Positions 15,458 through 40,221 of a DNA stretch of 55,825 nucleotides are shown here, piece after piece. Under the pieces are notes generated by a model, which saw only the letters and a program-made list of their open reading frames with translations, was not told the DNA's origin and made no database searches. How positions within the stretch are numbered: the stretch's first letter is position 1; every line of letters starts with the position of its first letter. The DNA lies in the NCBI GenBank assembly GCA_949514915.1, contig CATFLP010000127.1, positions 1 through 55,825 on the forward strand, read 5' to 3'. Source of the DNA: Methanobacteriota archaeon (GTDB taxonomy: Archaea > Thermoplasmatota > Poseidoniia > Poseidoniales > Poseidoniaceae). The position numbers and the translations under genes are program-made.

Positions 15458-15544
15458 ATTAATACATACTGGCATTTTAAATTGATATAAAATTATTAGA
15501 CATAATCTCTGATGTGTTATAACCTAACGGCTAGTCGAGAACCC

Positions 15545-21500: not shown

Positions 21501-23827
21501 GATGGTTAAATTTCAGTCATGATCCAATTGAAGGGCAACATATATTTCAAGCAAGTATTGTTGATGTACATGGTTTGAAAAATCAAACTAATACTTGGTT
21601 GGTACATGATCATACAAACCCAGAAATCAATGTGATTAATTTACCTTATTCTAATTTAACAAATTTAACCCAGTTGGATTTAATTTTAGAAATTAACGAA
21701 TATTCACAATTAATGATAAATGGAATTCTAGAACAATGGCCTGGCATTCAATTTTGGACAACTCTTGATTTATTTGAAGGCGAAAATGAATTCATGATTA
21801 AAGCAATAGATAGGGCAGGCAATTGGGGAGAATTACCATTGATTATTACTAGAGATACGATTTCGCCAGCAATTTCTCTATTCCCCCTTCCTTCCACTCC
21901 ACAAAATGTTTCAGAAATTACAATTAGTGGTTGGGTTGAACATGGTTCTACAGCATGCTTAGGAGAACTTATTTTCAGTAACCCAATTGTTGGTGAAGTT
22001 TTAGCAGATTGTGATCTAAGATCTAATCAAACAGGTTCAGACTCTCAAGGATGGAGATTTAGTGTAACTTATGATCTTTCCGAAGTTAATGATGGTGAAT
22101 TTTTATTCGAGTTAAAGGCTAGAGATTGGGCTGGTAATTGGAATGAAGTTAACACCAGTTTTAATTTAGATACAACACCACCCTCCATTGAATGGATTTA
22201 TCCTAATATTTTTGATAATAATTTATCAAATCAATACCTTAATTTATCTTGGGAAACAGATGAGCAATCTAATCAATACGTGTATCATAATGGCAACTTA
22301 ATTTCGGAATTAAATGGATATGGAATTAATGAATTAAACCTAGAGTTAACAGAAACTGGAGTTCATGAATTTTGTATTTTTGCTATAGATACGGCACAAA
22401 ACTTTGCTGAATATTGTATAGAATCATATTTATCACCTGATATATATTTTACAGATGTATATGCGCCATGGGATGGAAAAACTGTTAATTCCAAAGTAGT
22501 TAGTGCAGAAATATTCTCTGGCCCTAATCAAACTTATAGCTGGGCTAAATTATATTCAAACATGTGGGTTGTTCAACAGCAAGAAGAAACATTTAATGAA
22601 TTTACAACAGTAAGTTTTGATTTAGATGAAGGAATAAATAATTTGAGAATATTTGTTTCAACTTTAGATGGTTATGTAATACATGAATTATCTGTTATTC
22701 TTGATACAGAATCACCAAAATTAAATACAGATATTTCTTTAAAAAATATTTCAGTATCTGATAACTCATTGGATATTACTGGAGATTGTGAGCCTGGTTT
22801 ATTTGTAAATGCAATATTGCAATCTGAATTTTTAGAAGTGGAATGTAATTCATTGGGTAGATATTTGATAAGTATGCCATTATCTGGCCCAGAAGGAGAA
22901 AAACAAGTTTCCCTTTGGTCAGAAGATTTAGCGGGTAATACAGCACAGATCACTTTAAATTTCACATTAGATACAATTTCACCCACGATAGCAATAATTC
23001 AAATTAATGGTAATTGTACAGATCTGCCAATACCTACAATTTTTGATAATAATGAATTACCTTCATGTTTATTAGATGCAAATGCTAAATTTACAGGTGA
23101 AGATATTGTAGAATGGCGCTTTGTAGCTTTTTATGAAGGGATTGAAGTAGAAAGAATTAGTGGATTTAATATAGAGAATGGTACTGAAATAAACCTTCAG
23201 GTTAATGACAATATCATGAGTGGTACCTGGGTATTTAATGCTTGGGCCATAGATGATGCTGGAAATAATTTTGAAACAAATCAAGTTTTTAATTTAACAA
23301 GTGAAGGTTTTTCAGGATTGCAACATGCAACAAAAATTGGTTCTAGTTTAAATTTGATAATAATTGTAATTACTATATTTATGTTATTTACTTTAATTTT
23401 AATCAAGAAAAGAGAATCTGTATCAGTTGAAATATTTGATGAATCACCATCAATAAACCCTGAAATGATTTTTGATGAAAATGATTTATCTTTAGATGAA
23501 TTAACACTTAAAGAAGAACCTAATTTTAAATCAGAAATTATTGAAAATAATGAAACACATGTAGAGATTCAAGAAATAGAATCTTTGTTGAATTCAGAAA
23601 TTACTAATCAGGAAACAGACTTTGATTCACTAAAAGAACTTCTAGATTCAGAAACAAATACATTAGATGAAGCAGAAGTATTTGCTAATGATACAGGAGT
23701 TATGTTGGCTGCCGAGGGTACAATACAAGGCCAAACAGGTTGGTATCACGATAGGGATGGAAATTTATTTTATTGGAATGTTGATGAAAATGGAGTTTGG
23801 ACAAAAATCGATACGGAGTTGAATTAA
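15545..23827 (+). CDS. Giant membrane-anchored S8 (subtilisin/pyrolysin-like) protease with PPC-like, CBM-like, PA14, LamG and Ig-like domains
   Basis: Triad motifs ADSGID, HGTLCA and GTSLATP, oxyanion AAGN, repeated D(R/W/L/D)AGN Ig-like motifs and a C-terminal TM. Probable start is ATG 15545. Confidence 0.92.
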   Translation: MYDRLSSKRTQVNSAVLLVLLMISSIFVNIFTNLDSSFQEQMTQIDENLFLQENFENNIVYLPNLEYYTAMGEEIVELVVITNDLSSLTEWQKENGFLIKQVDLKNGQKFTEHSLPDFGLQHRKISLSGWMVEKLETISGILMVMPDPGTPQPVALEEPGEYSVVSGELHGATDSWDRNISGQGIKVAVADSGIDFAHPDLNGTQARVDDVTSPWNGWPIVFDPRSMEQWQRNGNTYPNDSSSWYSDTSTIEYDLDMNDFLDDSNLSIFGINPSVSGEYHLGKHPDTVLQSLAGGEIDILVVDELIAGVYDTVYVDTNRDGYFNDEKPMKMGSETSGRDTDGDGLWDQSAGMLYWISDGANSLPYGPTYTSRAGLQDRIPGNGNLTLFMLNVHTGPAGNHGTLCASAVAAQGIVGDGAVLGMAPDSELIAIANIYAGGSLLDVFRFAAEGYDGNLTSGDESNIASFSFGWRPPEGGADGTALYLDWMTRVHATKTTYLAAAGNGGHGYGTVATPGASSGIITVGAFSSKGGDNWGQSVMWTDRGPNALGRMDPDIVAVGWSATGDTTLNQKSNANSAYSSWAGTSLATPVAAGLTALVTQAWYETNGDWPNSLQIRDLIMSTADDRGYDPFVQGAGWFNAKRGVETILNQNDTTFWVQPAYWMAGKLQGANRDANMNILLPGESDSVNITLNNTGTSTIDYSFEPVVIEPITHNRIIWNASSSSGWDGYQSSRPDLVFPVNLQNNQNYTLDDDTILIRARASLNGSAFDSDQNRNEENVPLIKILRWNDDDGDGKYWEDLDGDGEVDDGEWEAGSEYTMVTQTGHVSPQTEARMGMPLDHSDSGILVGIWLEQVRSSNVDPVQMEIDITTFGYSSNPWIQNISNIVVLPGDEEIVTVDLDVPLNAYPGLHQQALMITANNGTNDSHSWPLPIIVNVAMEGPNELISLPLDDELTNQSLYRSTWMQGAQGWGWREESGDWKSVSLNWPSNLTTGNILIDVDWDDNVWTDIDAHLLSEQSHPYFNEDPLAYGPVHFSVESGSENNYQGSGKWDWNTYTGESRELLQANPSNGVKQLLLHSTFHGVGTNDNPVNVTVSYVDSLGAPLQRVVDDWSNGGFNQPIQIGSTHSLNVEEVRAIGWIKPLSLQNESATQDTPGDWSSSGYVREIDIEGAQEFKINIDSNMFGDDLDLAVYRDSNENGVIDWGNEQEATSGSGSSRENIMIENPADGTWFIVVQGYDVPNVNTTFWMEVEVLKGDNLIVEDILQLNESEINQSYPNGSARLGGIIPEDVISLNLTASIPPEEGYWKGILELVLEGDSGIVKIPYHYQLNEFPTEIEFLQINKGEYRNKSGPISLHLLDRGGGFSLNDLEFNGSFSSNMITNWTDWELNQWHDFTFEGIGMDGEWKDLTNTWLGLQVEESNTSVLTEYSGFVVFEAEDFSNTTVGIGTALNTYWSEETIVSGYSGRSYLEAKPNNGVNVFDSTDGPRLDYEIDFNSPGTYYVYVRVLGQSGSDDSLHVGLDGNPLTYGDVGMTSGSSWEWKDTAAGNVVTFDVQNPGRHTFNIWMREDGVIVDKVVLQQSGSIPTGLGPSGLMSTNGFNSGLIAEFFDNSGLSVNTSGMPDLNGRTPDFTRIDPMINYSNSNNQPWPGLSSSFADEFSSRHTGYVRVDIAGNYTFYVNSDDGSKLWIDNQIVVENIGTHAIREESGTIYLNAGYHTLKLEFFENFGWAGLELKWESDTIPKQYVPPESLFHGSGLPIRQNELVSWWPLDEANGTIVGDLISGYDLNLSGTNGTDWEMCRRAYCHNFDGIDDFAIYDLNANEEWSGDFTVSMWVKAETLGQSDFSSIFAVDNSGGNNRSFQFMVDGNNPGTYQFYSDSRYDIGPVDDDSWVHLAATYSDSKISSPSSTTATLRLYYNGLLANTASIDPLDANNFNLYKLGVNRAGNSYFAGLIDDVRVYDASLGSNEVLAIYNNDQFPDSGGIIREGWLNFSHDPIEGQHIFQASIVDVHGLKNQTNTWLVHDHTNPEINVINLPYSNLTNLTQLDLILEINEYSQLMINGILEQWPGIQFWTTLDLFEGENEFMIKAIDRAGNWGELPLIITRDTISPAISLFPLPSTPQNVSEITISGWVEHGSTACLGELIFSNPIVGEVLADCDLRSNQTGSDSQGWRFSVTYDLSEVNDGEFLFELKARDWAGNWNEVNTSFNLDTTPPSIEWIYPNIFDNNLSNQYLNLSWETDEQSNQYVYHNGNLISELNGYGINELNLELTETGVHEFCIFAIDTAQNFAEYCIESYLSPDIYFTDVYAPWDGKTVNSKVVSAEIFSGPNQTYSWAKLYSNMWVVQQQEETFNEFTTVSFDLDEGINNLRIFVSTLDGYVIHELSVILDTESPKLNTDISLKNISVSDNSLDITGDCEPGLFVNAILQSEFLEVECNSLGRYLISMPLSGPEGEKQVSLWSEDLAGNTAQITLNFTLDTISPTIAIIQINGNCTDLPIPTIFDNNELPSCLLDANAKFTGEDIVEWRFVAFYEGIEVERISGFNIENGTEINLQVNDNIMSGTWVFNAWAIDDAGNNFETNQVFNLTSEGFSGLQHATKIGSSLNLIIIVITIFMLFTLILIKKRESVSVEIFDESPSINPEMIFDENDLSLDELTLKEEPNFKSEIIENNETHVEIQEIESLLNSEITNQETDFDSLKELLDSETNTLDEAEVFANDTGVMLAAEGTIQGQTGWYHDRDGNLFYWNVDENGVWTKIDTELN

Positions 23828-25014: not shown

Positions 25015-27168
25015 ATGGGCCGCGGCATTATTGCAATGAATATTTTATTACTGCTATTGCTTCCTTCAATTGCAGTAGCATTACCAGTAAGTAAGGAAAT
25101 TCCAGAATGGCAAATAATGCCTGAAGGCCATACATTAGAAATTCCGTTTCAAATATCTAATGAAAAATATGACGATAATCCTTGGTGGTTAACAACGACT
25201 TTAGATAATAACCGAAATAAAATTCATGATTCTTTAGAAACAGTTTCAGAACCTGTAAGTGTTGGAATTTCTTATGATCACACTCCAGTTAGTAAAGATA
25301 TTCAATTAATTGAGGAAATGGGTTATTCTGTTAATTTGGAAGTTCCAGAAGTAGATGCATTATTAATTGGAACTGTTAATTCAAGTGACATTCTCAAACT
25401 TTCCAACTTAGATGGTGTAGTAATGGTAGAACGATATGGAGAGGTTGTATTTTATGGAGATATCCAAACTCCTGCAGTTAAAGCTAGAAATTCTACATTA
25501 TATCCTGTTGGTGCATGGGATCTTGGAGTTAGTGGTAAGGGAGTAAATATCGCTTTGACAGATACTGGTGTGGATAATGAGCATCCTGGTTTGTCAGGAA
25601 AATTTGTTGCTGGTTATGATGCAGTTTGTTTTGTACACTCAGATCCACAGTGTATTTTAGCTGGTGGTCGTGAAACAGATGGTTCATTTGATCCTGATGA
25701 TGGTAATCAACATGGTACTGCATGTATGGGTATGGCTGCAGCAACAGGAATAGAGGCAGATGGTTCACAAAGTGATTTTTATGGCTCAGCACCAGATGCA
25801 TCACTTGTTGATGTCCGAATAGGAACTGATATTGGGGCTGGCCCTTTCGAAAATTATGTAATATCTCAGGATTTTTATGAATCTGCAATGAATGGTATTC
25901 AATGGATTATTGACAATAGAGATACTGCTTGGCCTGGTGTAGATGAATCACTACATGGGATTGATATAATTTCTTTATCTTGGGGAATTACTAGTCATGA
26001 AGATGGAGGAAGTGATGGAGAAGACATGTTTAGCCGTTTGCTTGATGAAGCAATGGAAGTTGGTGTCACAGTAAGTGTAGCAGCAGGGAATGACGGTCCA
26101 GATAATGATGGTTTGTCAGGAATGGGTTCCAGCAGCTTATCAATAACAGTTGGAGCAACTGATGATCAAAATACAATTGATAGAGAAGATGATACTATTG
26201 CAAGTTATTCGAGTAGGGGCCCTAGAAAGGATAATGGAAATAATAATCCCCTCGATGAATTTAAACCAGAAGTTACTGCACCAGGAACGAATATTATTCA
26301 AGCAGAAGGTTGTGTAACTAGTGGAGGCTGTTCTAATATTATTGATGATGCAGCTGATAATACATATACTGGAAGAGGAAGTGGAACTTCTTATGCTACG
26401 CCAGCAGTAACTGGAGTAATTGCACTAATGATGGAGGCGAATCCAGATTTAGATCCATTACAAATTAAAGAGATTTTAAAACAAACTGCAGAAAGAAGAG
26501 GAGAACCATTCGATACTAGTATTGATCCTTTTTGGAACAAGGACTTTGGTTGGGGGATGGTTGATGCACATGCTGCCGTAAAATTATCCTTTGATTTACT
26601 AAATTCGGGTATGGAAATGGAAAATTATTCACCTTATTTACAGTTGCATATAACTTCATTTTCAGAGGATTTAGAAAACTCATCTACAATGATTAGTGGT
26701 ATTGCTTGGGCCCAACAAGGAGAAGTATCTGCAATTGAGTACAATATTGATGACGGTGTTTGGTATCAAGCTACTTATGAAGAAGTTAATGAAACAAATC
26801 AAAATGTTCCCTTTAATTGGTCAATACAATTAGATCCTGGAGCATTATCTGATAAAAATCACACAATACAAATTAGAAGTGTTGGAGCAGGAGATACAAA
26901 TAATCAATATTCTCTTTTGAGTATTTTAACAATAAGGGGAACTGGTGTTTCTGATGATTCTAGTGGAGGAATAAATATGTTTGTTATTATTTCACTTTTC
27001 ATCATAATTGGCTTCTTACTTGTAATGTTTATGTCTCAGATTAGTCAACCTGAATTACTACCATCTTATCAAGAACAAATGCACCAAGGCAACAATTTAT
27101 CTGGGAAAGTATTAGATGCGGAATTGCTGGATGTAGTAGAAGATTTTGAGAAGAATCATCCAACCTAA
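25015..27168 (+). CDS. Secreted, membrane-anchored S8 serine peptidase
   Basis: Signal peptide, TDTGVD, HGTACMG, AAGN, SGTSYATP, C-terminal Ig-like domain and TM. Confidence 0.93.
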   Translation: MGRGIIAMNILLLLLLPSIAVALPVSKEIPEWQIMPEGHTLEIPFQISNEKYDDNPWWLTTTLDNNRNKIHDSLETVSEPVSVGISYDHTPVSKDIQLIEEMGYSVNLEVPEVDALLIGTVNSSDILKLSNLDGVVMVERYGEVVFYGDIQTPAVKARNSTLYPVGAWDLGVSGKGVNIALTDTGVDNEHPGLSGKFVAGYDAVCFVHSDPQCILAGGRETDGSFDPDDGNQHGTACMGMAAATGIEADGSQSDFYGSAPDASLVDVRIGTDIGAGPFENYVISQDFYESAMNGIQWIIDNRDTAWPGVDESLHGIDIISLSWGITSHEDGGSDGEDMFSRLLDEAMEVGVTVSVAAGNDGPDNDGLSGMGSSSLSITVGATDDQNTIDREDDTIASYSSRGPRKDNGNNNPLDEFKPEVTAPGTNIIQAEGCVTSGGCSNIIDDAADNTYTGRGSGTSYATPAVTGVIALMMEANPDLDPLQIKEILKQTAERRGEPFDTSIDPFWNKDFGWGMVDAHAAVKLSFDLLNSGMEMENYSPYLQLHITSFSEDLENSSTMISGIAWAQQGEVSAIEYNIDDGVWYQATYEEVNETNQNVPFNWSIQLDPGALSDKNHTIQIRSVGAGDTNNQYSLLSILTIRGTGVSDDSSGGINMFVIISLFIIIGFLLVMFMSQISQPELLPSYQEQMHQGNNLSGKVLDAELLDVVEDFEKNHPT

Positions 27169-30055: not shown

Positions 30056-30174
30056 ATTTGCTTTTTACTTAAATAATTGAAATATATGTATTTTTGAGAA
30101 TGGTTATTTTTTGCGGAAGATTTTTTTTATTATATACTAATCAAACTTTTTACCTTCCTCCTATTGGCAGGTGC

Positions 30175-33100
30175 ATGGCAGTGTTAGATAGCCGTGTTCT
30201 TACTTTCATCGTTATTGGCTTGTTGATGGTTTCAAGCCCCCTAGTAATAATCTCCGAAGAGTTAGAAATGAATTATTCAGATTCCGAAGTAGAAGGGCGT
30301 GTTACTGTAGATTATCTTGTTGAATCAGTATCTTTTGGAAATACATCAAGTCCTGTGGAAAATTGGACTGAACCAGATAAATCAGTTGCGAATTTTTTAA
30401 TTAGAGGAGTTTTAGTGGATATTGATGTGACAATTTTTCAAAATGCAGGATCATTAGGACAATTTTCTACAGCATATGTTTTAGTTGAGGCATATCACCC
30501 AATAGGATATCTTGAATGGAGTGATTCTTATACAGAATACATGACTAGAGGAATGCGCAATACTACAACTGTTAAGTGGACACCAGAAGCTGCTCATAGT
30601 CATCTTGAGAATGGTTCATTATCTGGAGGTTATACAATAAGAGTTACAATATCTAATGATAATATAGATACAGATACAGATCCTTCTAATAATGTAATGG
30701 AAATTGAAATGCCTGTGGCTATTTGGAGAGATCAACTTGATGACACAAGTGAGACGGCATCTTATTTTGCAATGCGTGCATATAAGTATTCTAAAGATAC
30801 TGCAGATGGACCTGATGCTATCGGAAAAGGATCTTGGCAATTAGAAGAGAATACAGGTATTGTTGGTTCTGATAGTTATCGTCATTCAACACCTGGAAAT
30901 AATTACCCTGGAAATGCATATGATAGATTGGTATGGGGTTTCCCTACTGATGGGCAATCTGGTTGTGGAGAAGTATTGGGCGTTAGGAGTTCTAATGAGT
31001 TTGGATGGGATGGAGATGGTTCATATTTTTGGCCATGGTGTAGAGCTAAATTAGATGGTAGCCAATTTGTAACTTTGGATATTGCAACACAGGCGTGGGG
31101 TAATATAGGTACAGGAGATAAAGTGGGGCTTGAGTTATGGCAAGCAGGCGGAGGAAATATCCAAACTTTGGTAAAAGAGATTGAAGGCGTAAGCAGTACT
31201 AATTCTCAATGGTCTCAAGTATATTGGAAAGTTTCTGATGAAGAAATGAATAAATTAGAATGGCATGTTGGCTTTATTTTTGAAAGCGATAATTCTGTGG
31301 CAACTCCAGGATATCATGTAGATGATTTTGCTATTTTTGCAGTTGAAAATGTTTCTAGATTTACTCTCGATGTAGATTGTAAAGATATCACTACTGGACA
31401 ATATCCTGATTTAGGTTTTAGTGTTATTCCTGATGACCCTAACCCTCCAGCTATGGAATGTTTAATTCATAATAATGGATATCGGGATGCACATGTTAGT
31501 GTATTAAGCAATAATAACAATGATACTTGGTTTGATCCAAGAATTGATCATAGTCTTTCATCGACATATGGTTCTCAAGTATTTGTAATAATTCCTCCAG
31601 ATGAGACTGCAGCATTTTGGATTAATCAATCAATAATTCCAGCTGCAGAGGTCACTAATCCAAGTGACATTGCATTATTGAACATCTCAGTTATTGGTTC
31701 ATATACTCTTGAAGAACATTATTTCACTTCAATTCCTATTTCTGTAGGTTATCATGACAATGCACGTATTTGGTCTGAAGCACCCAATCCAGCATTTTCA
31801 TTTTATCCTGGAGAATCTGGAATTGTAGACGTCCAAGTCACAAATACAGGAAATAAAAATGGTAAATTTGCATTGACTGGTGCATTTCCTAATGAAAGAC
31901 CACAATGGCTTCCATGGTTGTCAATCTCGTATAAAGATCAGTTTGGTAACGATATTCCAAGAGATAATAATGGATTCCAATCAATAGAATTAACCAAGGG
32001 AGAATCTGTAGATTTATCTTTAGAATTAGTTGCACCAGTTGAAACATTTCCAGGAGTTTTCGACATAGAATTGCAGGTAAATGGAATTGAAGGAACATCT
32101 ACGCAAGCAACATTCCCACTAGCAATTGAAGTAAGAACTCAGTATGATTTACAAATGACAGCCGAATCTCAATCATTAAGCACTCCTGCAGATGGAGTAC
32201 AAGAGTTAATACCTGTAAATCTAGTAAATAATGGGAATACTTTAGAGGTATTTGATTTACAATTGTTAGGAGATGCTTGGTCTTTAGGTGCAGAATTATC
32301 ATCAACACAAACCCAACCACTTGCTGCTTACGGGTTAGAATCATCAGGAGTTAATATCATATTACCTATGACTGAAGGAATTAGTCCTGGAGATTATACA
32401 TTAATTTTATCTGCAACTTCAGTAAATGATCAAAATTACAATGGCCAGATATATTTCACAATAACAGTTGAAGACACAAGGAAAGTAGAAGTCGAAAGTA
32501 GAGATTTAAGAGAGCAAAGTTATCGTGGAGGACAACAAGTAGAATCTATAACTTTTCAAATCAATAATACTGGAAATATTGAAGATCAATATATTATCCA
32601 GTTAGATACACCACTTGGAATGGATGCTTATGTAGAATCAATTGGAATGGATGGAGGAAAAACACCTTTGATACAACCAGGGGCATCATTTAATGTGACA
32701 GTTTCATTTACATTTGATACATTAGCAGAAGGAGATTTTAATTTAGGAGTAATTGCAAAAAGTAGCAATAATGAAAATGTAATGTCTACGGGAAATGCTA
32801 AATTTATAGTAGGTAATTTAGGTTGGATAAAATTATTACTTTCTTCCGAAGATTTAGATATTGATCTTGAAACAGAAGAAGCAGGAAAAGTATATGTTTT
32901 GCATGTTGATGAAAATGGTGACTACTACTTAAATTTACAAGTATTCAATAAACATTACACTGAACAAGAAATTAGAATTGACTTTGATGATAAAATTTCA
33001 GCCAGTTATTTTGGTATTCAAGTAGATGAGTATACAAGTGCCTTTAATGTTAGAGATAATGATAATGAGGATATTGCGTTGAAAATAAGTGTTCCACGTT

Positions 33101-33612
33101 CAACACTTCTTTCATTACCTAGTGATACATATATGGTTAATTTGACAATTTGGGTTGAATCAGATCTTGATGTGTCTCCGTTGATATTAAGAGTGGATTT
33201 GATGCGAGAATCTCTAAATACAGAGGTAGAGGAAAGTTCTAGTGAATATAGCAGCATGATTTTTAATGGTCTTTCTATAGTGTTGCTTGTAGGAATTCTT
33301 GGAGGATTATTATTTGTTCTTTGGAGGGAATTTTCCAAGGAAGATGATGAAGAATCATATAATTATGATTCAGGAATAACAAGCCAATTTGGTGATGATG
33401 GGCGTTCAGTACCTTCAGCAAGTATGTTATTGGGTGGCGTAGATTCGATTGAAGTTGGAAAAACAGCTCCTGATTTACCTCAAGAAAATGATCTTGTTGC
33501 GAATATAGATGAAGAAACATCTCCTCCATTGCCAGTGTCTGGGTTACCAGAAGGATGGACAATGGAGCAATGGAAACATTATGGCCAACAATGGTTAGAT
33601 CAGCAAAAATAA
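30175..33612 (+). CDS. Large cell-surface protein with CARDB/NEW3-like Ig repeats, C-terminal TM and Trp-rich tail
   Basis: N-terminal hydrophobic leader (MAVLDS...), repeated V(T/V)NxGN strands, TM, then LPEGWTMEQWKHYGQQWL. Confidence 0.8.
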   Translation: MAVLDSRVLTFIVIGLLMVSSPLVIISEELEMNYSDSEVEGRVTVDYLVESVSFGNTSSPVENWTEPDKSVANFLIRGVLVDIDVTIFQNAGSLGQFSTAYVLVEAYHPIGYLEWSDSYTEYMTRGMRNTTTVKWTPEAAHSHLENGSLSGGYTIRVTISNDNIDTDTDPSNNVMEIEMPVAIWRDQLDDTSETASYFAMRAYKYSKDTADGPDAIGKGSWQLEENTGIVGSDSYRHSTPGNNYPGNAYDRLVWGFPTDGQSGCGEVLGVRSSNEFGWDGDGSYFWPWCRAKLDGSQFVTLDIATQAWGNIGTGDKVGLELWQAGGGNIQTLVKEIEGVSSTNSQWSQVYWKVSDEEMNKLEWHVGFIFESDNSVATPGYHVDDFAIFAVENVSRFTLDVDCKDITTGQYPDLGFSVIPDDPNPPAMECLIHNNGYRDAHVSVLSNNNNDTWFDPRIDHSLSSTYGSQVFVIIPPDETAAFWINQSIIPAAEVTNPSDIALLNISVIGSYTLEEHYFTSIPISVGYHDNARIWSEAPNPAFSFYPGESGIVDVQVTNTGNKNGKFALTGAFPNERPQWLPWLSISYKDQFGNDIPRDNNGFQSIELTKGESVDLSLELVAPVETFPGVFDIELQVNGIEGTSTQATFPLAIEVRTQYDLQMTAESQSLSTPADGVQELIPVNLVNNGNTLEVFDLQLLGDAWSLGAELSSTQTQPLAAYGLESSGVNIILPMTEGISPGDYTLILSATSVNDQNYNGQIYFTITVEDTRKVEVESRDLREQSYRGGQQVESITFQINNTGNIEDQYIIQLDTPLGMDAYVESIGMDGGKTPLIQPGASFNVTVSFTFDTLAEGDFNLGVIAKSSNNENVMSTGNAKFIVGNLGWIKLLLSSEDLDIDLETEEAGKVYVLHVDENGDYYLNLQVFNKHYTEQEIRIDFDDKISASYFGIQVDEYTSAFNVRDNDNEDIALKISVPRSTLLSLPSDTYMVNLTIWVESDLDVSPLILRVDLMRESLNTEVEESSSEYSSMIFNGLSIVLLVGILGGLLFVLWREFSKEDDEESYNYDSGITSQFGDDGRSVPSASMLLGGVDSIEVGKTAPDLPQENDLVANIDEETSPPLPVSGLPEGWTMEQWKHYGQQWLDQQK

Positions 33613-35322: not shown

Positions 35323-35413
35323 TATTGCAGATTTATTTTCTGTAGTCTGCGTTATATTCAAGAATCGCATTCGTGTGGCATATAATGTCCAGTCAAATTT
35401 GGACGGTGATTTG

Positions 35414-37549
35414 ATGTCAAAACCAGTATTGATTCTTTTTGGAACCCAATCTGGTAATTCTGAAGATTTAGCATCACAATTAGCTAAATCTGCAACTGCT
35501 CATGGCTTGACTCCAACTGTGCTTGATATGGATGCAACAAATGTAGAGATGATGGCATCTTCAGAAAGGATTTTGATTATTTGTAGTACTTGGGGAGAAG
35601 GTGAAATGCCTGATTCTGCTGAAGCATTATGGGATTCAATTAATGCAGAAGGAGTGCCAAAAATGGAAAATACGCATTTTTCAGTTTGTGCTCTTGGAGA
35701 TACAAGTTACGAATTTTATTGCCAGTCTGGTAAAGATTGGGATCGAAGATTGGAAGAATTAGGGGCAAAACGAGTTTTTGCAAGGCAAGATTGTGATGTT
35801 GACTTTGACGAACCTTATGCTGCATGGGCCGCAGGTGCTTTACCAGCAATATCTTCTGTTGGTGGATCAGTTGCAGAAGTTGTCGAAGAACCCTCAGAAG
35901 AATTAAGTGAACCTAGTACTGAAGAATCTTCATCAGGGGAATTAGATGAAATAATGTCTGATGGAGATAGAAAATTAGTAGTTTTATTCGGAAGCCAATC
36001 TGGAAATTCAGAAGATTTAGCCTTTAGGGTAAAGTCAAAAGCAAGTGAATTTGGATTAAATGCAGAAGTTTTCGATATGGAAGGTTTTGATTTAAATTCA
36101 TTAGAGAACACATCAAGATTATTGATAATTTGTAGTACTTGGGGTGAGGGCGATATGCCTGATTCTGCTGAAGCATTATGGCAACTTGCGAAATCAGACA
36201 AAAGGCCAAAATTATCAAAAACTTATTTCTCAGTTTGTGCTCTTGGAGATACAAGTTATGAATTCTTTTGCCAGTCTGGTAAAGATTGGGATGAAGTTAT
36301 AGAAGAAATGGGTGGAAAAAGAATTCATGAAAGAGCAGATTGTGATGTTGATTTCGATCCAACATTCCAGAAATGGGTGATTCCAGCATTAGCTGGTCTT
36401 GCAGCAGTAGATGGTAATGGAGACTATCACGAAGAATTAGTGTCATTATTCATAGAATTAGTCGAAAATAAAGGAAAGAAAACTTCAACTGGAGATTTAG
36501 ATACTCCTGTTATTTTCCGTGAGTCAATTGAATTAACTTTCAAAATCTTCCGATATAATCCTTTATTGATCGAAAAAGGATGGGATACATATGAATGTAA
36601 AATACCAGGTCATTTTTCATTATTAGATGCATTAAAATCCATAAAATCAAATTTCGACCCTACACTTTCTTTTAGAGGAAGTGGACCTTTATCAGGAATT
36701 ATTGTTAATGGTGCAGTCGTAAGAGCAGATAGAACCCGATTGTTAGATATGGTTGAATTATGTGGTCATGAACTTAAGATAGAACCATTATCTGGATATG
36801 AAGTAGTAAAGGATTTGGTAATAAGCACTAAAAATTATGATGTCCATAGAATTAAATCTACTCCATGGATGATTCCTGCTACTAGATCCGGTGTTAATAC
36901 TGTTTCAGGAACTACTATCGGAGTGATGGATGCATCAAAAGCTACAGATTTACATGAATTAGGAGACATAGATAGCCCCCAATTATTGCATTCATTTTCA
37001 GATACCTTGCCTTATGATCCAGAGTACATTGGTCCAGCATTAGTAATGCATACTTGGAAAAGAGTAAATGATGAAAGGTATTCAGAAAAAGCAAGACAAT
37101 CAAGCATTAATTTACTTCAAAACGAAGGAGGAGCTTGGAATGAATCAGATTGTAGTTCATTTGGAAGGCATGGAGATTTCGGTAAAAAAATTGCCAATTC
37201 ATTTAATGAATGCCGTGCAGAATTAATTCGTAAAAAAGGCTTTTCTGGAAAGCATGGGCGTTTAGTAAAATGGTATGGACTTTCAGTAAAATGGTCTGGT
37301 AAAGTAAATGAAACAACATTGTATAGGCAAGTTTTAGGTCCCTTAGGATTAGTATCAAATTTATTTTCGGGAGTTTCTATGAGGATGATGCTTGGATTTA
37401 CTAGGACTGGTGCAAAACCATTTAGAAGCATTTTTCCATTAATAGCACCACCTGCAGGAATTGGAAAAATTCCTCCAATGATTAATTCTAAGGTTGAGTC
37501 ACATCATGAAGTGGCAAATTTATTTAATAAATTAGATAAGAGGTTTTGA
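35414..37549 (+). CDS. Fusion protein: two flavodoxin domains plus a degenerate SdhB/FrdB-like domain lacking Fe-S cysteine motifs
   Basis: Two copies of FG(T/S)QSGNSE...STWGEG.MP...LGDTSYEF(Y/F)C, then FKIFRYNP...LLDALKSIK...DPTLSFR...IEPLSGYEVVKDLVI...YIGPA. GGTGAT SD before ATG 35414. Confidence 0.85.
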   Translation: MSKPVLILFGTQSGNSEDLASQLAKSATAHGLTPTVLDMDATNVEMMASSERILIICSTWGEGEMPDSAEALWDSINAEGVPKMENTHFSVCALGDTSYEFYCQSGKDWDRRLEELGAKRVFARQDCDVDFDEPYAAWAAGALPAISSVGGSVAEVVEEPSEELSEPSTEESSSGELDEIMSDGDRKLVVLFGSQSGNSEDLAFRVKSKASEFGLNAEVFDMEGFDLNSLENTSRLLIICSTWGEGDMPDSAEALWQLAKSDKRPKLSKTYFSVCALGDTSYEFFCQSGKDWDEVIEEMGGKRIHERADCDVDFDPTFQKWVIPALAGLAAVDGNGDYHEELVSLFIELVENKGKKTSTGDLDTPVIFRESIELTFKIFRYNPLLIEKGWDTYECKIPGHFSLLDALKSIKSNFDPTLSFRGSGPLSGIIVNGAVVRADRTRLLDMVELCGHELKIEPLSGYEVVKDLVISTKNYDVHRIKSTPWMIPATRSGVNTVSGTTIGVMDASKATDLHELGDIDSPQLLHSFSDTLPYDPEYIGPALVMHTWKRVNDERYSEKARQSSINLLQNEGGAWNESDCSSFGRHGDFGKKIANSFNECRAELIRKKGFSGKHGRLVKWYGLSVKWSGKVNETTLYRQVLGPLGLVSNLFSGVSMRMMLGFTRTGAKPFRSIFPLIAPPAGIGKIPPMINSKVESHHEVANLFNKLDKRF

Positions 37550-37558
37550 GTGATTAAA

Positions 37559-38416
37559 ATGGTTAAGTTTGCATATTATCCAGGTAATGTTGCTAGAGCA
37601 GCTTCAATTGAAGTTGAAGATTGTATTCAGCCCTTATGTTCAACTTTAGGAATTGAATTAATTGAAATACCAAAAGCCACTTCAGATGGAGGGAATATAA
37701 TTTCTCAAGCATCAACGATATTACAACATACTTTGGTTGCAAGAAATATGGCATTAGCTGAAGAAAAAGGACTTGACATGATCACTACTTGTGCAACTTC
37801 TCATGGTATTCATTGTGATACAATTGATGCAATGAACAATGATATTTCACTAAAGTCAAAAATTAATAGCACCTTATCCCAAGTTTCAGGTGTTGAATTT
37901 CATGGAGAATCAAACTCAAAGCATTTACTCCATGTTTTAGTTGAGGAAATAGGATTAGATAAAATAAAATCATTAGTAAAAAACCCAATTGAATTAAAAG
38001 TTGCAGGTTATTATGGGCCAAATATGCAAAAAGAAGGGGCAAGTTCAGAAGATAATGTATTTAATCCACAATATCTAGAACAACTTATTTCTGCATTAGG
38101 AGGAACTCCAGTAGATTATGATTTAAAATGTCAAAGTGTTGGCGCACCCTCCTTATTGACGAATCAATCTAGTACTCTAAGGATGACTGCTGCTGTACTT
38201 GATGATGCAAAAGAAAATGGAGCACAATTAATGGTTAGTGCTTGTACATTATCCCATTCAAATTTAGATACTTACCAAGTTAAAGCAGGTAGAATCTCAG
38301 GAAAGGATACCTCTATGCCAGTGATTCATTTGGCAGAATTAGTTGCTTTTGCTTTAGGCCATCACAGAGATCGTTTTGCTCAGTTAAAAACAAGAGTAAT
38401 AGTAATTGGAAGTTAG
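37559..38416 (+). CDS. HdrB/SdhE-like CCG-domain protein with degenerate cysteine motifs
   Basis: AYYPG, LGIELIEI, ARNMALAE, VAGYYG, ALGGTPVDY, NLDTYQ and MPVIHLAELVAFALG are HdrB-family landmarks. Confidence 0.85.
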   Translation: MVKFAYYPGNVARAASIEVEDCIQPLCSTLGIELIEIPKATSDGGNIISQASTILQHTLVARNMALAEEKGLDMITTCATSHGIHCDTIDAMNNDISLKSKINSTLSQVSGVEFHGESNSKHLLHVLVEEIGLDKIKSLVKNPIELKVAGYYGPNMQKEGASSEDNVFNPQYLEQLISALGGTPVDYDLKCQSVGAPSLLTNQSSTLRMTAAVLDDAKENGAQLMVSACTLSHSNLDTYQVKAGRISGKDTSMPVIHLAELVAFALGHHRDRFAQLKTRVIVIGS

Positions 38417-38421
38417 TATGA

Positions 38422-40221
38422 TTATTCTTCTTCTGATTTCAGATTAAATTGCTCTAAACCTGTTTGTCCAAGTGGCCTTAGTTTTTGTGAAATTGATAAA
38501 TTATTACTTATATCCCTCATTTCATTTTTTAATTTTTGATTATTTTTTCCAGAATCACTGATAGTATCTTTTTTGGAAATTTCTTTTAATCTTTCTTCTT
38601 CTAATTCTATGAATGATTGAACATCGTATTCATTTTCATGAATTGAAACTGTGAAATTATTTAATTTATTTATTGGGTTTTTATAATTAAATGAAAGATT
38701 GCGTTGATTTTTAACTCTATTTAGAATTCTGTGCATTCTAATTTCTTTAGCTACAGCAGCATGTCTTATGCCTTCATCTCTAGTATTCTTCGATATTAAA
38801 ATATATACATATCCATCTTTGTGTCTTCCAGTTCTTCCTCTTCTTTGAATTGTTCTAATCTCACTAGCTACTGGTTCATAGAATACTACTCTGTCTGCTG
38901 AAGGTATGTCAAGCCCCTCTTCTCCCACAGAAGTGGCAACTAATACATTTAATTCACCTTCTCTGAATTTATTCAATGTTGAAATTTGTTGTTTTTGAGT
39001 CATTCCTTCATCACCATCTCTTGATGATTGGCCAACAAATGGAATCGCATTTATTCCGTTAATGCCATTTAATGAAATTGAAATAGATTTTACAGAATCT
39101 CTTAATGAAGCAAAAACGATAATCCTGCTGTTAGGGTCTATCTCTATTTGCTCTTTTACTAATTGCTTTACTTTATCCATTTTGTTATGGATCTCTTTCA
39201 TGTTATATATTTCATTTTTTAAATCAATAAATTCTTTTTTTTGCACGAACCTGGATAGCTTTTTTTCTCCTTTTTGAAATTGAGACTCAGTTCTCCTCAT
39301 GTAATTACGTGTACTGATGATGCCTTGAGTCGAAATCAAATTTATTAATTGAAGAACACGAATCGCATCAACAATTATTTTTATTGAATTCCAACCATGT
39401 TGACTTTTACGCTCAATTAGGTAATTTGCTCGTTTCATGGCATCATTTAATCCAGTACGCGTAATAATTCCTTTATGTAAATAAACTCCAGTTCTTTGTA
39501 ATGTTTCTACCATGCCATCTAACCATTTTTTTAATGGCTCTACCATTTCCTGAATTTTTATTGGCAAATCAAGGTTAATTACATTGGATTCTAATTCTAT
39601 TGCGTATGGTTTGATTAATGGATTACTTCTTTGCATCGAAAAGATATTTTTTGAATCCAGCCTTTTTGTTAAATTTATTATTGATTTTTCAGTTGAACCT
39701 GGAGATGCTGTTGCCCCTAATAGTAATCCAGAGCTTGCATGTTCTAAGTATTGATCAGCAACCTCACCCATTGCATGTTTACCTGATGCATGGTGTGCTT
39801 CATCAATTACTAGTAGGCAATAATTTGAAAGGGAAAGAGAACCTCTTTTTACATCATTTCTAATAACTTGAGGAGTTGAAAGTACTAATTTTGCATTTTT
39901 TACAATTTCTTCCCTTTTTTTCCAATGAATTCCGCCATTTATCATCACTATTTCTTCAGACGGAATGTTTAGAAATTTTTCTGCATCAGAAAAATGTTGA
40001 GCCAATAGTGGATTTGTTGGTGCAATTAATAATGCTTTTTTTTCTGGATTTTGTAGTAATTTATCTGCAATTACCATGAATTCAATTGGTGTTTTACCCA
40101 TTGCAGTAGGCAATACTAGTAATGTTGACGAATTGAGTATAGAATTTAATGCTTTTAATTGATATGCTCTTGCTTCAACATAATTCGAAGAGAGATATGG
40201 ATGGTTAATTCTTGCACTCAC
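38422..40221 (-). CDS. hef: Hef/FANCM-like DEAH helicase (helicase module only)
   Basis: ARAYQ, LPTAMGKT, DEAHHA, TASPG, ATSVGEEGLDIP, QRRGRTGR. Confidence 0.9.
   Translation of the reverse strand: MSARINHPYLSSNYVEARAYQLKALNSILNSSTLLVLPTAMGKTPIEFMVIADKLLQNPEKKALLIAPTNPLLAQHFSDAEKFLNIPSEEIVMINGGIHWKKREEIVKNAKLVLSTPQVIRNDVKRGSLSLSNYCLLVIDEAHHASGKHAMGEVADQYLEHASSGLLLGATASPGSTEKSIINLTKRLDSKNIFSMQRSNPLIKPYAIELESNVINLDLPIKIQEMVEPLKKWLDGMVETLQRTGVYLHKGIITRTGLNDAMKRANYLIERKSQHGWNSIKIIVDAIRVLQLINLISTQGIISTRNYMRRTESQFQKGEKKLSRFVQKKEFIDLKNEIYNMKEIHNKMDKVKQLVKEQIEIDPNSRIIVFASLRDSVKSISISLNGINGINAIPFVGQSSRDGDEGMTQKQQISTLNKFREGELNVLVATSVGEEGLDIPSADRVVFYEPVASEIRTIQRRGRTGRHKDGYVYILISKNTRDEGIRHAAVAKEIRMHRILNRVKNQRNLSFNYKNPINKLNNFTVSIHENEYDVQSFIELEEERLKEISKKDTISDSGKNNQKLKNEMRDISNNLSISQKLRPLGQTGLEQFNLKSEEE

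Follow-up and report, generated by a model that had tools for sequence, protein, structure and literature searches.

An SdhB-fold domain stripped of its iron-sulfur ligands, fused to exchangeable carrier domains and paired with an HdrB-like protein in the Poseidoniales

In the window (the whole stretch of DNA analysed, 55,825 nucleotides from a Poseidoniaceae archaeon), positions 36521-37546 encode a true SdhB/FrdB-fold domain, here called SdhB*, from which the ligands of all three Fe-S clusters have been lost; it is fused behind two flavodoxin domains and is followed directly by a gene for an HdrB/SdhE-like protein, HdrB*. The gene pair belongs to the single-copy core of the whole order Poseidoniales, which count among the most abundant surface-ocean archaea and of which we know no cultured member, and it exemplifies how two classic iron-sulfur folds can outlive the loss of every cluster under strong selection. 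We lean, though not heavily, towards a reading in which SdhB* is a metal-free clamp and the tethered carriers feed the HdrB* cleft directly. If carriers do feed an HdrB-like cleft, this would be a connection, not described before, from low-potential carriers to an acceptor in organisms relevant to ocean carbon turnover, and a case in which adaptation to scarce iron and to oxygen could be tested.

An SdhB/FrdB-fold domain without its cluster ligands

Gene A is laid out as follows:

35375..37549, forward strand: gene A, a flavodoxin-flavodoxin-SdhB* fusion of 724 aa, P0001 (ORF list, translation, family alignment)
35432..35809, forward strand: flavodoxin domain 1, the outer carrier, a CysJ-type FMN domain (Pfam Flavodoxin_1, 107.8 bits)
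35981..36352, forward strand: flavodoxin domain 2, the inner carrier (Pfam Flavodoxin_1, 107.1 bits)
36521..37234, forward strand: SdhB* core, aa 383-620, an N-terminal [2Fe-2S]-type and a C-terminal ferredoxin-type helical domain (profiles, PDB, model)
37235..37546, forward strand: C-terminal extension, aa 621-724, shared by homology with long type-E-like SdhBs (hhalign, alignment)
37388..37453, forward strand: family-specific insert of about 22 aa, aa ~672-693 (hhalign gap, low pLDDT)

SdhB* is thus the C-terminal half of a 724-aa protein and not a stand-alone protein: position 36530, where a previous sequence-only reading of this DNA had placed its start, is residue 386 of the gene A protein, and the strings quoted in that reading are all present in the translation of 35375-37546. 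The called start of gene A is a GTG, and the ATG at 35414 (M14) agrees with the starts of the close homologues P0009 and P0016. Members of the pair carry the public database labels cysJ, sdhB, hdrB and even cytochrome b. RNA contigs from one marine library, 88-98% alike, match parts of gene A only, a weak observation for which DNA carry-over is possible; RNA run X20 has no contig over gene B or 36165-36677, an absence of cover that is uninformative.

The similarity to SdhB claimed by the sequence-only reading proved to be far beyond chance. Pfam Fer2_3 scores 38.7 bits on the gene A protein (cut-off 27, E 1.1e-9), NCBIfam PRK12576 SdhB matches across aa 383-589 (E 1.4e-17), a PDB search finds E. 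coli FrdB (1kf6_B, E 5.6e-10 over 204 residues), and hhalign aligns the SdhB* family with 16 long SdhBs over P0001 383-722 (probability 99.95, E 1.3e-37, 313 columns). Predicting the structure, as that reading had suggested, gave an SdhB/FrdB fold: the AF2 model has a pLDDT of 82.9, and its best Foldseek match is FrdB 6awf_F (E 3.9e-14, TM 0.84, rmsd 2.6 Å). Scores on curated family models stay below their cut-offs, far below for PRK12576 (64.1 bits, cut-off 344) and likewise for TIGR00384 (48.6 bits, cut-off 88). The nearest canonical relatives themselves have their best NCBIfam match in PRK12576/PRK12577, which we take to be 'type E' SdhB models, and they match MFR_FeS_SdhB as well.

The three former cluster sites were located by alignment:

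36668..36730, forward strand: vestigial [2Fe-2S] site, aa 432-452, ligand positions G437, a deletion, S440 and D452
36962..37006, forward strand: vestigial [4Fe-4S] motif, aa 530-544, ligand positions I532, P535, L538 and S542
37130..37174, forward strand: vestigial third cluster site, aa 586-600 (the last cluster string quoted earlier is aa 586-597), ligand positions E590, C593, F596 and G600

We compared SdhB* with 16 canonical long SdhBs at 12 ligand columns, each of which holds Cys in 88-100% of these proteins. SdhB* reads G, deletion, S, D in the first site, I, P, L, S in the second and E, C, F, G in the third, which leaves 11 of the 12 columns without Cys; the sole one, C593, is a Cys in 1/29 family members. 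This bears out the claim that all three motifs are erased. Among the SdhB* copies from one genome per genus, 24/24 have 0-1 Cys at the 11 alignable ligand positions, 29/29 family proteins likewise have 0-1 at the ligand positions, and SdhB* therefore contains no electron wire. The sequence-only reading had allowed for an alternative cluster site formed by the remaining residues; none is plausible, the only invariant Cys of the domain being C408, outside the predicted interface with HdrB*. The replacement residues S542 and E590 are invariant in 29/29 and 24/24 copies, and D452 is retained in 24/29 family members; D452 is replaced by Gly in the f3 family, so that this site is not conserved across Poseidoniales.

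SdhB* was found in 120/121 genomes of the order (56/56 of the high-quality ones), in all 120 as a single-copy, intact gene region without in-frame stops, and HdrB* in 121/121. HdrB* lies directly downstream of SdhB* on the same strand in 118/121 genomes, the 3 exceptions being at contig ends, and in genome G019 both modules are joined in one 987-aa ORF. We found no gene A/B pair outside the order. Of 349 SdhB* positions, 98 are invariant (14 members, 41-82% identical). The most conserved part is the extension (aa 621-724), with 49/104 positions invariant and 39 in the predicted interface. In the hhalign alignment P0001 621-722 is paired with the extension of the 16 long SdhBs apart from the 22-aa insert; the type-E-like extension proposed from the string SVKWSGKVNE (aa 637-646 of P0001) is therefore homologous along its length. 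Searched alone against the PDB, the extension gave chance-level matches only (best E 0.14).

Taken together, the near-universal presence in the order, the invariant positions, the confident fold and the fixed residues S542 and E590 support the earlier proposal of a metal-free scaffold under selection. The same data contradict the view of SdhB* as a functionless, degenerating remnant, to which we give practically no credence: all cofactor ligands are indeed lost, and SdhB* evolves faster than canonical SdhB, but the domain is stop-free across the order, keeps its 98 invariant positions and its fold, and has a strongly conserved partner that is always adjacent.

The HdrB-like partner and the predicted complex

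The features of gene B are the following:

37550..38416, forward strand: gene B, HdrB/SdhE-like protein HdrB*, 288 aa, P0003 (ORF list, profiles, PDB)
37790..37792, forward strand: Cys81 of HdrB*, fourth Cys position of the first CCG motif (invariant in 20/20, 8/8 and 24/24)
38243..38245, forward strand: Cys232 of HdrB*, fourth Cys position of the second CCG motif (invariant; kept in 24/24)

The probable start of gene B is the ATG at 37559. HdrB* matches 8rvv_B in a sequence search of the PDB (E 3.8e-32) and NCBIfam MFR_anch_SdhE (E 6.7e-39), and its model has the HdrB fold (Foldseek, 8rwn_B, TM 0.86). It lacks an intact pair of CX(n)CCGX(m)CXXC motifs, which would hold 10 Cys: Pfam CCG scores 19.3 bits (cut-off 20.6), and the motif positions are N, S, D, C, S in the first and P, S, V, C, S in the second, which leaves 2/10 Cys. 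S235 and H236, which follow Cys232, are invariant in two alignments, and S235 is found in 23/24 of the one-per-genus set. HdrB* has two symmetric Cys-x-x-Ser-His stretches, with C81 and C232 both outside the predicted interface. Across the same genomes HdrB* is 45-69% identical, compared to 35-51% for SdhB*.

The predicted SdhB*/HdrB* complex has an ipSAE of 0.90 (three runs, 0.89-0.91) vs. 0.01 for the best control, at least 89% of contacts are shared between runs, and the partner pLDDT is at least 89. The mark used to judge the model is passed by 116/157 solved complexes and 2/215 mismatched pairs, a calibration that is approximate because our own alignments were used, and the model may lean on memory of 3kwl, a single-chain structure with SdhB-like and HdrB-like parts. 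The heterodimer and its interface are supported by the model only. The predicted interface consists of the SdhB* C-terminal extension and the former cluster regions of both proteins, and 31 of the 98 invariant SdhB* residues fall within its 71 residues (odds ratio 2.4, p = 0.001, with relatives that are not independent). In the model, the strongest conservation of SdhB* is mostly in the surface holding HdrB*: W588, E590, D592, R598 and G600 of the third site are invariant and within the predicted interface, in which D543 and T544 of the former [4Fe-4S] motif are also found. Canonical long SdhBs lack the family-specific insert; aa 672-697 contain ten invariant residues, and pLDDT falls below 50 at P0002 302-322, in the insert region. 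Because of this low model confidence and its place outside the predicted interface, the insert may be where a carrier domain or a third partner docks.

The residues at the former sites could also be read as a rebuilt wire, in which conserved Asp, Glu, Ser and His at the former sites and interface (D452, S542, D543, E590 and D592, with N13, S45 and D46 of HdrB*) bind another metal or cofactor, and SdhB* stays in electron or substrate chemistry. The replacements are non-random, with S542 and E590 invariant and D452 in 24/29, and several of them meet former ligand positions of HdrB* in the model (P0002 residue 168 contacts HdrB* 196). Such ligand sets, however, hold no known Fe-S cluster, the residues are equally explained as salt bridges and hydrogen bonds that pack the cavities and hold the interface together, and D452 is Gly in the f3 family. 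We regard this reading as highly improbable.

Conservation in HdrB* is distributed differently: its invariant residues do not accumulate at the interface (16/81 there), and many invariant polar ones sit away from it, a pattern that suits a site of its own. This distribution bears on the possibility that the pair is purely an adaptor, a heterodimer without its own acceptor site that docks the carriers to the membrane or to a third redox enzyme, in the manner proposed for SdhE as membrane anchor of type-E succinate dehydrogenase. Type-E SdhE is described, in the passage cited, as a monotopic membrane anchor (PMC2754724), the insert with its ten invariant residues outside the interface would then be a site that becomes ordered on a partner, and the core in this lineage is without any cofactor ligands. 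HdrB*, however, keeps the invariant polar residues off the interface, including the two Cys-x-x-Ser-His stretches; 8/24 genomes retain a full CCG motif, for which an inert anchor would have no use; and neither a transmembrane segment nor a conserved third gene was found beside the pair. We consider a pure adaptor unlikely, if well short of negligible.

The invariant Cys at the same motif position of each pseudo-repeat also invites comparison with the two-cysteine Asp/Glu racemase superfamily, in which case HdrB* would be a non-redox two-thiol enzyme and the flavodoxins would be regulatory or unrelated. Weak Pfam Asp_Glu_race matches were obtained for 10/20 members (best E 5e-4, all below the cut-off; PF01177 scores 16.4 bits on HdrB* against a cut-off of 31), and racemases are among the Foldseek matches of HdrB* (5evc_A, E 6e-5, TM 0.33-0.38). 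This similarity is marginal and equally true of cluster-bearing HdrB, which is of the same fold class, and the permanent fusion to swapped ferredoxin and flavodoxin carriers points to redox work, such that we see very little room for a racemase-like enzyme.

Carriers, genome context and the order of losses

Both flavodoxin domains look functional, and FMN binding is predicted for them, because Pfam Flavodoxin_1 is far above its cut-off (207 bits for the two domains, cut-off 25; the cysJ model scores 288 bits) and the family profile matches the CysJ FMN domain 1ykg_A (E 9.7e-35). Domains 1 and 2 of P0001 are 55% identical. Almost every family member has flavodoxin domain 2, and in most relatives the place of flavodoxin domain 1 is taken by a single-cluster ferredoxin (Fer4_13). 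Among 130 family proteins, with classes assigned from short motifs rather than profiles, we counted 100 ferredoxin-flavodoxin, 18 flavodoxin-flavodoxin, 1 ferredoxin-ferredoxin and 1 ferredoxin-only protein, and 10 that were incomplete or unclear. On the SdhB* tree 9 changes of the carrier label are required, of which starred branches force at least 5, and cassettes differ even where SdhB* domains are separated by less than 0.01 substitutions per site. The outer carrier is exchangeable. We rejected the idea that flavodoxin 1 is a recent, lineage-wise copy of flavodoxin 2: flavodoxin 1 is nearest to other copies of flavodoxin 1 (61-96% identical) and only 49-65% identical to flavodoxin 2 of its own protein. 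As judged from these identities, the flavodoxin cassette is old and has been exchanged or lost rather than re-made each time.

The same succession of surface protein, thermosome, gene pair, helicase and ribosomal operon is found in 7/7 other genomes inspected, and this neighbourhood (the window and the 7 genomes) identified no functional partner, acceptor or substrate. The genome has an SdhA on another contig with its own SdhB, in a separate complete operon for a membrane protein of 303 aa, this SdhA and an SdhB with all its ligands, as well as a NadB without a partner. Canonical SdhB is present in 120/121 genomes of the order; since SdhB* is too, the phyletic profile cannot separate the readings.

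An iron-sparing complex II, in which SdhB* would sit on SdhA (or on its homologue NadB) with the flavodoxin FMNs replacing the three Fe-S clusters, would account for the kept SdhB fold, could draw on the SdhA and the partnerless NadB of this genome, and would fit the general replacement of ferredoxin by flavodoxin under iron scarcity. It is nevertheless quite improbable in our view. The SdhA already has a fully liganded SdhB in its own operon, and this canonical SdhB is far more conserved (62-85% identity) than SdhB*. SdhB* shares only 15% identity with the SdhB of its own genome and traces back to another SdhB type, a long one; neither the window nor the 7 other genomes have a flavoprotein gene next to the pair; SdhB* on SdhA would leave the FAD without a nearby cofactor; and in most lineages the same protein carries an Fe-S ferredoxin.

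We traced the losses in 24 genomes, one for each genus. All 24 have lost the SdhB-like wire, the first CCG motif of HdrB* is intact (5/5 Cys) in 8/24, reduced in 10/24 and gone in 6/24, and the outer carrier is a ferredoxin or a flavodoxin across the series, which makes it a rare ordered record, at genus level, of an electron wire being dismantled. In the 8/24 genomes with a complete first CCG motif SdhB* is already stripped, and because of this the HdrB* cluster there could be reached only by the tethered carriers. The present window is the end-member, with an Fe-S ligand set nowhere in the module, which here appears to move electrons without iron, carrying only flavin-binding domains. If the first CCG cluster was the acceptor, its having been lost twice with the gene kept would mean that the chemistry changed or that the cluster was never essential.

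In the clamp reading, SdhB* would no longer be an electron carrier but a metal-free structural clamp, whose extension and former cluster end hold HdrB* in the geometry of an SdhB-SdhE (or TfrB-type) ancestor. Its N-terminus would tether two low-potential one-electron carriers on flexible, acidic and Ala/Pro-rich linkers. Electrons would enter at the outer carrier, a ferredoxin in most lineages and a flavodoxin here, probably from a soluble enzyme linked to ferredoxin or flavodoxin, for instance the 2-oxoacid:ferredoxin oxidoreductase of this genome (an alpha-subunit match is present, together with one free flavodoxin). From the FMN of the inner flavodoxin they would pass directly, without involvement of SdhB*, to an acceptor in the HdrB* cleft, most likely a thiol/disulfide centre (C81, C232) or a bound quinone. 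With no Fe-S ligand set left in the module, the device in this genome would comprise two FMN and protein groups only.

A further step, which we put forward tentatively as rather unlikely, would make the pair a ferredoxin- or flavodoxin-driven reductase of Hdr/Tfr/SdhE descent in which flavin and thiol chemistry took over from Fe-S catalysis step by step: the second CCG cluster would have disappeared together with the SdhB wire, and the last non-cubane cluster later, twice independently, up to an iron-free form in which two FMN serve a Cys81/Cys232 centre in the old heterodisulfide-reductase cleft. Ferredoxin-dependent thioredoxin reductase occurs in Fe-S and flavin versions, and the pair would then be a parallel to it, as well as a natural experiment in which an oxygen-sensitive, iron-costly enzyme was rebuilt for the oxic, iron-poor surface ocean.

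Comparison with known systems

In a limited full-text literature search we found no paper describing the gene pair, and the gene A fusion is not mentioned in the cited parts of a paper on archaeal fusion proteins (PMC11237513). The pair resembles the type-E SdhB and SdhE of Sulfolobus and the 8-methylmenaquinol:fumarate reductase of Campylobacterota in its long SdhB with a C-terminal extension and in the adjacent HdrB-like partner of two CCG domains, the heterodimer being model-supported here. SdhE, formerly named SdhC, is stated in the cited passage to bind a [4Fe-4S] cluster (PMC2754724). The present pair differs from these systems in having no SdhA gene beside it and two carrier domains fused on, in that SdhB* lacks the three ligand sets and its partner here 8/10 CCG cysteines, and in that all NCBIfam scores of the pair are far below the cut-offs.

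TfrB of thiol:fumarate reductase, an SdhB-like part fused to CCG domains, has the same modules in the same order, as in the single ORF of G019, with a weak NCBIfam TfrB match (E 1.1e-5). TfrB has a full cluster ligand set and works with TfrA, whereas the pair here has neither clusters nor a TfrA-like gene. HdrB of HdrABC is the best sequence and fold match of the gene B product. It carries two non-cubane [4Fe-4S] clusters on 10 Cys; the gene B product keeps only the fourth Cys of each motif, and HdrA and HdrC are not beside it.

PDB 3kwl, an uncharacterised 514-aa protein of Helicobacter pylori that is presumably a DUF5644 protein, is the only solved chain matching both models in Foldseek (SdhB*: rank 32, E 3.3e-7, 236 columns; HdrB*: rank 7, E 2.1e-9, TMq 0.73, 282 columns). 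At the sequence level 3kwl gave no match (E 1.7), and PF18712 has none in this genome with an E of 1 or less; clusters of DUF5644 (PF18712), a family of Campylobacterota proteins, are among the Atlas look-alikes of SdhB* (0.91-0.92). In the passages cited, 3kwl is likewise without an assigned function (PMC3397514), and HP0468 is tabulated as a DUF5644 protein (PMC9570263). In contrast to the pair, 3kwl is bacterial, a single chain and without carrier domains.

CysJ and cytochrome P450 reductase share with gene A the CysJ-type FMN domains on flexible linkers, the FAD/NADPH domain of these enzymes being absent here. Flavodoxin is known to stand in for ferredoxin when iron is scarce, and the alternation of the two at one position of the gene A protein is similar to this; here, however, the swap concerns a domain within a fusion protein and not a free carrier gene.

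The gene pair and its surroundings

The SdhB-like sequence at 36530-37549 is part of the 3' half of a single open reading frame, whose translation contains all of the strings quoted in the sequence-only reading. The two genes considered here are the following:

35375..37549, + strand: gene A, open reading frame of 724 aa (P0001)
37550..38416, + strand: gene B, HdrB/SdhE homologue of 288 aa (P0003)

The called start of gene A is a GTG at 35375, and in the alignment the ATG at 35414 agrees with the start of the close homologues; gene B is called from a GTG at 37550, and its homologues begin at ATG 37559. With the ATG starts, the products are 711 and 285 aa long and the genes are separated by 9 bases (0 with the called GTG starts). 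The N-terminal half of P0001 consists of two Flavodoxin_1 domains (Pfam, 207 bits combined) that are 55% identical to each other and of CysJ type (288 bits for the NCBIfam cysJ model; E = 9.7e-35 for the match of the family profile to the CysJ FMN domain 1ykg_A), with acidic, Ser-rich linkers separating them in the translated protein. The closest homologues are labelled 'Candidatus Poseidoniales', 'Poseidonia sp.' or 'Thermoplasmatota archaeon' by their sources.

The window is low in GC (29-39%) and includes a thermosome and a ribosomal-protein operon. Contigs of the marine metatranscriptome X20 are 88-98% alike over 35511-36146, 36817-36979 and 37217-37456, a weak hint of expression that comes from one study, carries neither strand nor level, and could reflect DNA carry-over. 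In the DNA runs X1 and X3, the full stretch is covered. Elsewhere on the + strand, 15512-23827 encodes a 2771-aa protein with subtilase (Peptidase_S8), GH115_C, PA14, Laminin_G_3 and Ig-like domains, and 25015-27168 a second S8 peptidase of 717 aa; both are presumably secreted or surface protein-degrading enzymes. At E 1e-5, the 1172-aa product of 30094-33612 (+), which has a C-terminal hydrophobic stretch, matches no Pfam family; in 7/7 other genomes inspected, a similarly sized gene lies at this spot, upstream of the thermosome. Convergent to the gene pair, 38422-40221 (-) encodes a 599-aa DEAD/Helicase_C/ResIII helicase, and all 7 of these genomes have an opposite-strand gene of helicase size (580-894 aa) at that position.

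The SdhB-like domain and its ligand positions

The C-terminal domain of P0001 is a genuine SdhB homologue. Fer2_3 matches aa 388-487 (38.7 bits, cut-off 27), NCBIfam SdhB models cover aa 383-589 (PRK12576, E = 1.4e-17) with scores far below their cut-offs, and 204 residues align with E. coli FrdB (E = 5.6e-10). Profile-profile comparison of 14 family members with 16 long SdhBs aligned P0001 383-722 to residues 3-318 of a 323-aa SdhB (probability 99.95, E = 1.3e-37, 313 columns). The AF2 model of aa 376-724 (P0002; 45 sequences, pLDDT 82.9) has FrdB/SdhB chains as its top Foldseek matches, including 6awf_F (E = 3.9e-14, TM 0.84 on the target, rmsd 2.6 Å). The nearest canonical relatives have their best NCBIfam matches in PRK12576/PRK12577, which we take to be 'type E' SdhB models, and match the methylmenaquinol:fumarate reductase SdhB model as well. 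The last 104 residues (aa 621-724) align with the extension characteristic of long SdhBs, as the sequence-only reading had proposed for a type-E-like C-terminus; this extension is the best-conserved section of P0001 (49/104 positions invariant), and contains an insert of ~22 residues (aa ~672-693) specific to the family.

That reading had also claimed that all three Fe-S motifs are erased, and the ligand table agrees with it. Aligning 29 members of the family with 16 canonical long SdhBs, we identified 12 columns that are Cys in 88-100% of the canonical sequences. At these columns, P0001 has G437, a deletion, S440 and D452 in the first set, I532, P535, L538 and S542 in the second, and E590, C593, F596 and G600 in the third; the only Cys, C593, is Cys in just 1/29 family members. 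S542 and E590 are invariant, and D452 and G600 are retained in 24/29 and 26/29 members, respectively. Since C408 is the sole invariant Cys of the domain, there is no alternative Cys-based cluster site, and neither of the outcomes that the sequence-only reading named as refuting it is observed. A rebuilt metal site is very improbable. The earlier interpretation as a metal-free scaffold is supported and is extended below.

No flavoprotein gene flanks the pair in the window or in 7 relatives. The genome's succinate dehydrogenase operon is complete and lies separately, on a different contig of the assembly (1.79 Mb, 130 contigs, 85% complete); it encodes a membrane protein of 303 aa, SdhA (618 aa) and an SdhB (252 aa) with the full ligand set and a score over the PRK12386 cut-off. 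NadB accounts for the second SdhA-like gene. Of the 121 genomes of the order, 120 have canonical SdhB, with 62-85% identity, compared to 35-51% for the SdhB-like domain and 45-69% for the HdrB-like protein across the same genomes. The SdhB-like domain shares 15% identity with the SdhB of its own genome, and therefore represents an old separate lineage rather than a recent duplicate. Beside this operon, the gene pair has little chance of being an iron-sparing complex II. Fer2_3 has one further match in the genome, the third and a weak one (G000:C55:3369-3536, L003; 33.5 bits, 219-aa frame), distinct from both the canonical SdhB and the fusion.

The HdrB-like partner, its distribution and the loss of ligands

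PMC2754724 describes SdhE as a CCG-domain protein that binds [4Fe-4S] and is a putative monotopic anchor. The gene B product matches HdrB 8rvv_B (E = 3.8e-32) and, each below its cut-off, the NCBIfam models HdrB (2.7e-40) and MFR_anch_SdhE (6.7e-39); its AF2 model (pLDDT 85.8) matches HdrB 8rwn_B with TM 0.86. The five Cys positions of the first CCG motif are occupied by N13, S45, D46, C81 and S84, and those of the second by P157, S196, V197, C232 and S235. The retained fourth Cys of each motif, C81 and C232, is invariant in both sets of copies compared (20/20 and 24/24), and each opens a Cys-x-x-Ser-His stretch in the window's protein.

The SdhB-like domain was found in 120/121 sampled genomes of the order (56/56 of high quality, 22/22 genera), as one copy per genome save splits at contig ends, and the HdrB-like protein in 121/121. 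Comparison of the two genome tables places the latter directly downstream on the same strand in 118/121 genomes; in the three unpaired genomes (G008, G071 and G099), contig ends interrupt the locus. Sampling 201 genomes across the phylum, we found the domain, the window's genome apart, in 35/35 genomes of the two large families (21/21 and 14/14) and in 0/2 genomes of the sister order within the class; six other genomes give only weak matches at the canonical-SdhB level (best E = 9.1e-16). A search of 1.84 billion representatives returned just 16 clusters that reach E 1e-30. That the domain is a decaying relic can practically be discounted. In G019, both genes are merged in a single 987-aa open frame (L034:4871-7834, contig C27), which could be a natural TfrB-like fusion, a lost stop or an assembly error; they are in separate frames in G035, of the same genus.

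A complex model of the two proteins (alignments A3 and A4) reached an ipSAE of 0.90 (three runs, 0.89-0.91), compared to 0.01 for the best control, with at least 89% of contacts in common between runs and partner pLDDT of at least 89. The ipSAE mark is reached by 116/157 solved complexes and 2/215 mismatched pairs, a calibration that is only rough because the model was built on our own alignments; given that the PDB includes 3kwl, in which an SdhB-like and an HdrB-like part are fused, part of this pass may stem from that known structure. Besides the extension, the modelled interface comprises two stretches of the SdhB-like domain at its former [4Fe-4S] and third clusters (predicted at P0002 168-176 and 213-225, that is, P0001 543-551 and 588-600) and former-ligand stretches of the HdrB-like protein (predicted at 13-20, 41-58, 157-162 and 191-215). 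The model places the stripped end of the SdhB-like domain against the second CCG half (e.g., P0002 168 with residue 196), and the extension over the first (e.g., P0002 263 with residue 45). Invariant residues of the SdhB-like domain are enriched in its 71-residue interface (31/98; odds ratio 2.4, p = 0.001, with relatives not independent), and those of the HdrB-like protein are not (16/81).

Cys counts from one genome per genus (24 genomes, 22 genera) form a series of losses. Of the 11 ligand positions that can be aligned in the SdhB-like domain, 0-1 are Cys in 24/24 genomes, and in all 24 the second CCG motif retains C232 alone. The first motif is complete (5/5 Cys) in 8/24 genomes (g6 and g7, of the window's family, g9 twice, g10, g11, g16 and g19), has 2/5 Cys in 10/24, all of family f3, and 1/5 in 6/24, all of the window's family and including the window. 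In a tree of the HdrB-like protein from which the ligand columns were left out (quick search, unrooted), a starred branch separates each state from the rest, for two changes in total; because canonical relatives have ten Cys and the intact state occurs in both large families, two separate losses of the last cluster are likeliest. The window, with the most stripped HdrB-like protein, two flavodoxins and zero Fe-S ligand sets in the module, is the end-member of this genus-level series.

Tethered carriers, a proposed mechanism and known systems

By motif counts, which agree with the precomputed Pfam Fer4_13 labels, the fused carriers of 130 family proteins are ferredoxin-flavodoxin in 100, flavodoxin-flavodoxin in 18, ferredoxin-ferredoxin in 1, ferredoxin only in 1, and truncated or unclear in 10. 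On a FastTree of the SdhB-like domain (120 rows), the carrier label requires 9 changes, and starred branches force at least 5 of these; one small clade contains both P0041 (two flavodoxins) and P0054 (ferredoxin-flavodoxin), on end branches <0.01 substitutions per site. Outer flavodoxins are 61-96% alike across lineages, compared to 49-65% with their own inner flavodoxin, indicating an old cassette that was exchanged or lost, not re-invented. Two-flavodoxin forms occur in 5/16 genomes with a degenerate first motif and 0/8 with an intact one, an association that, in a small sample of related genomes, is suggestive only.

In our reading, the wire of the SdhB-like domain was lost before the order diversified, and so was the cluster of the CCG half that abuts it in the model. 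A third of genera retained the other CCG cluster, which there would be reachable by the tethered carriers only; this favours direct delivery of electrons by the carriers to the cleft of the HdrB-like protein, with the SdhB-like domain surviving as a clamp and tether. That the module is instead a pure adaptor is unlikely. Low-potential donors are plausible, given a 2-oxoacid:ferredoxin oxidoreductase alpha-subunit match and one free flavodoxin in the genome, and no NuoF match in the 85% complete assembly. The only stand-alone flavodoxin (G000:C109:5501-5902, 162-aa frame, 102.6 bits) may serve the tethered carriers as a mobile partner. For direct delivery to the cleft, the likeliest acceptor is thiol/disulfide chemistry on C81/C232, or a quinone; a racemase-like activity would be a distinctly remote reading of the protein.

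The uncharacterised 514-aa H. pylori structure 3kwl matches both models (Foldseek), and DUF5644 proteins of Campylobacterota, among which PMC9570263 lists HP0468, are feature look-alikes and the nearest non-archaeal ones of the SdhB-like domain (Atlas clusters); they may represent a second, bacterial SdhB+HdrB derivative. Full-text searches of a literature collection returned no description of the module. Among described systems, the type-E SdhB/SdhE pair, TfrB and HdrB come closest. TfrB and HdrB are fully liganded, and so is the type-E pair, in contrast to the cluster-less module of the window. Relative to these fully liganded systems, a cluster-less SdhB/SdhE (HdrB) form with fused carriers is new.
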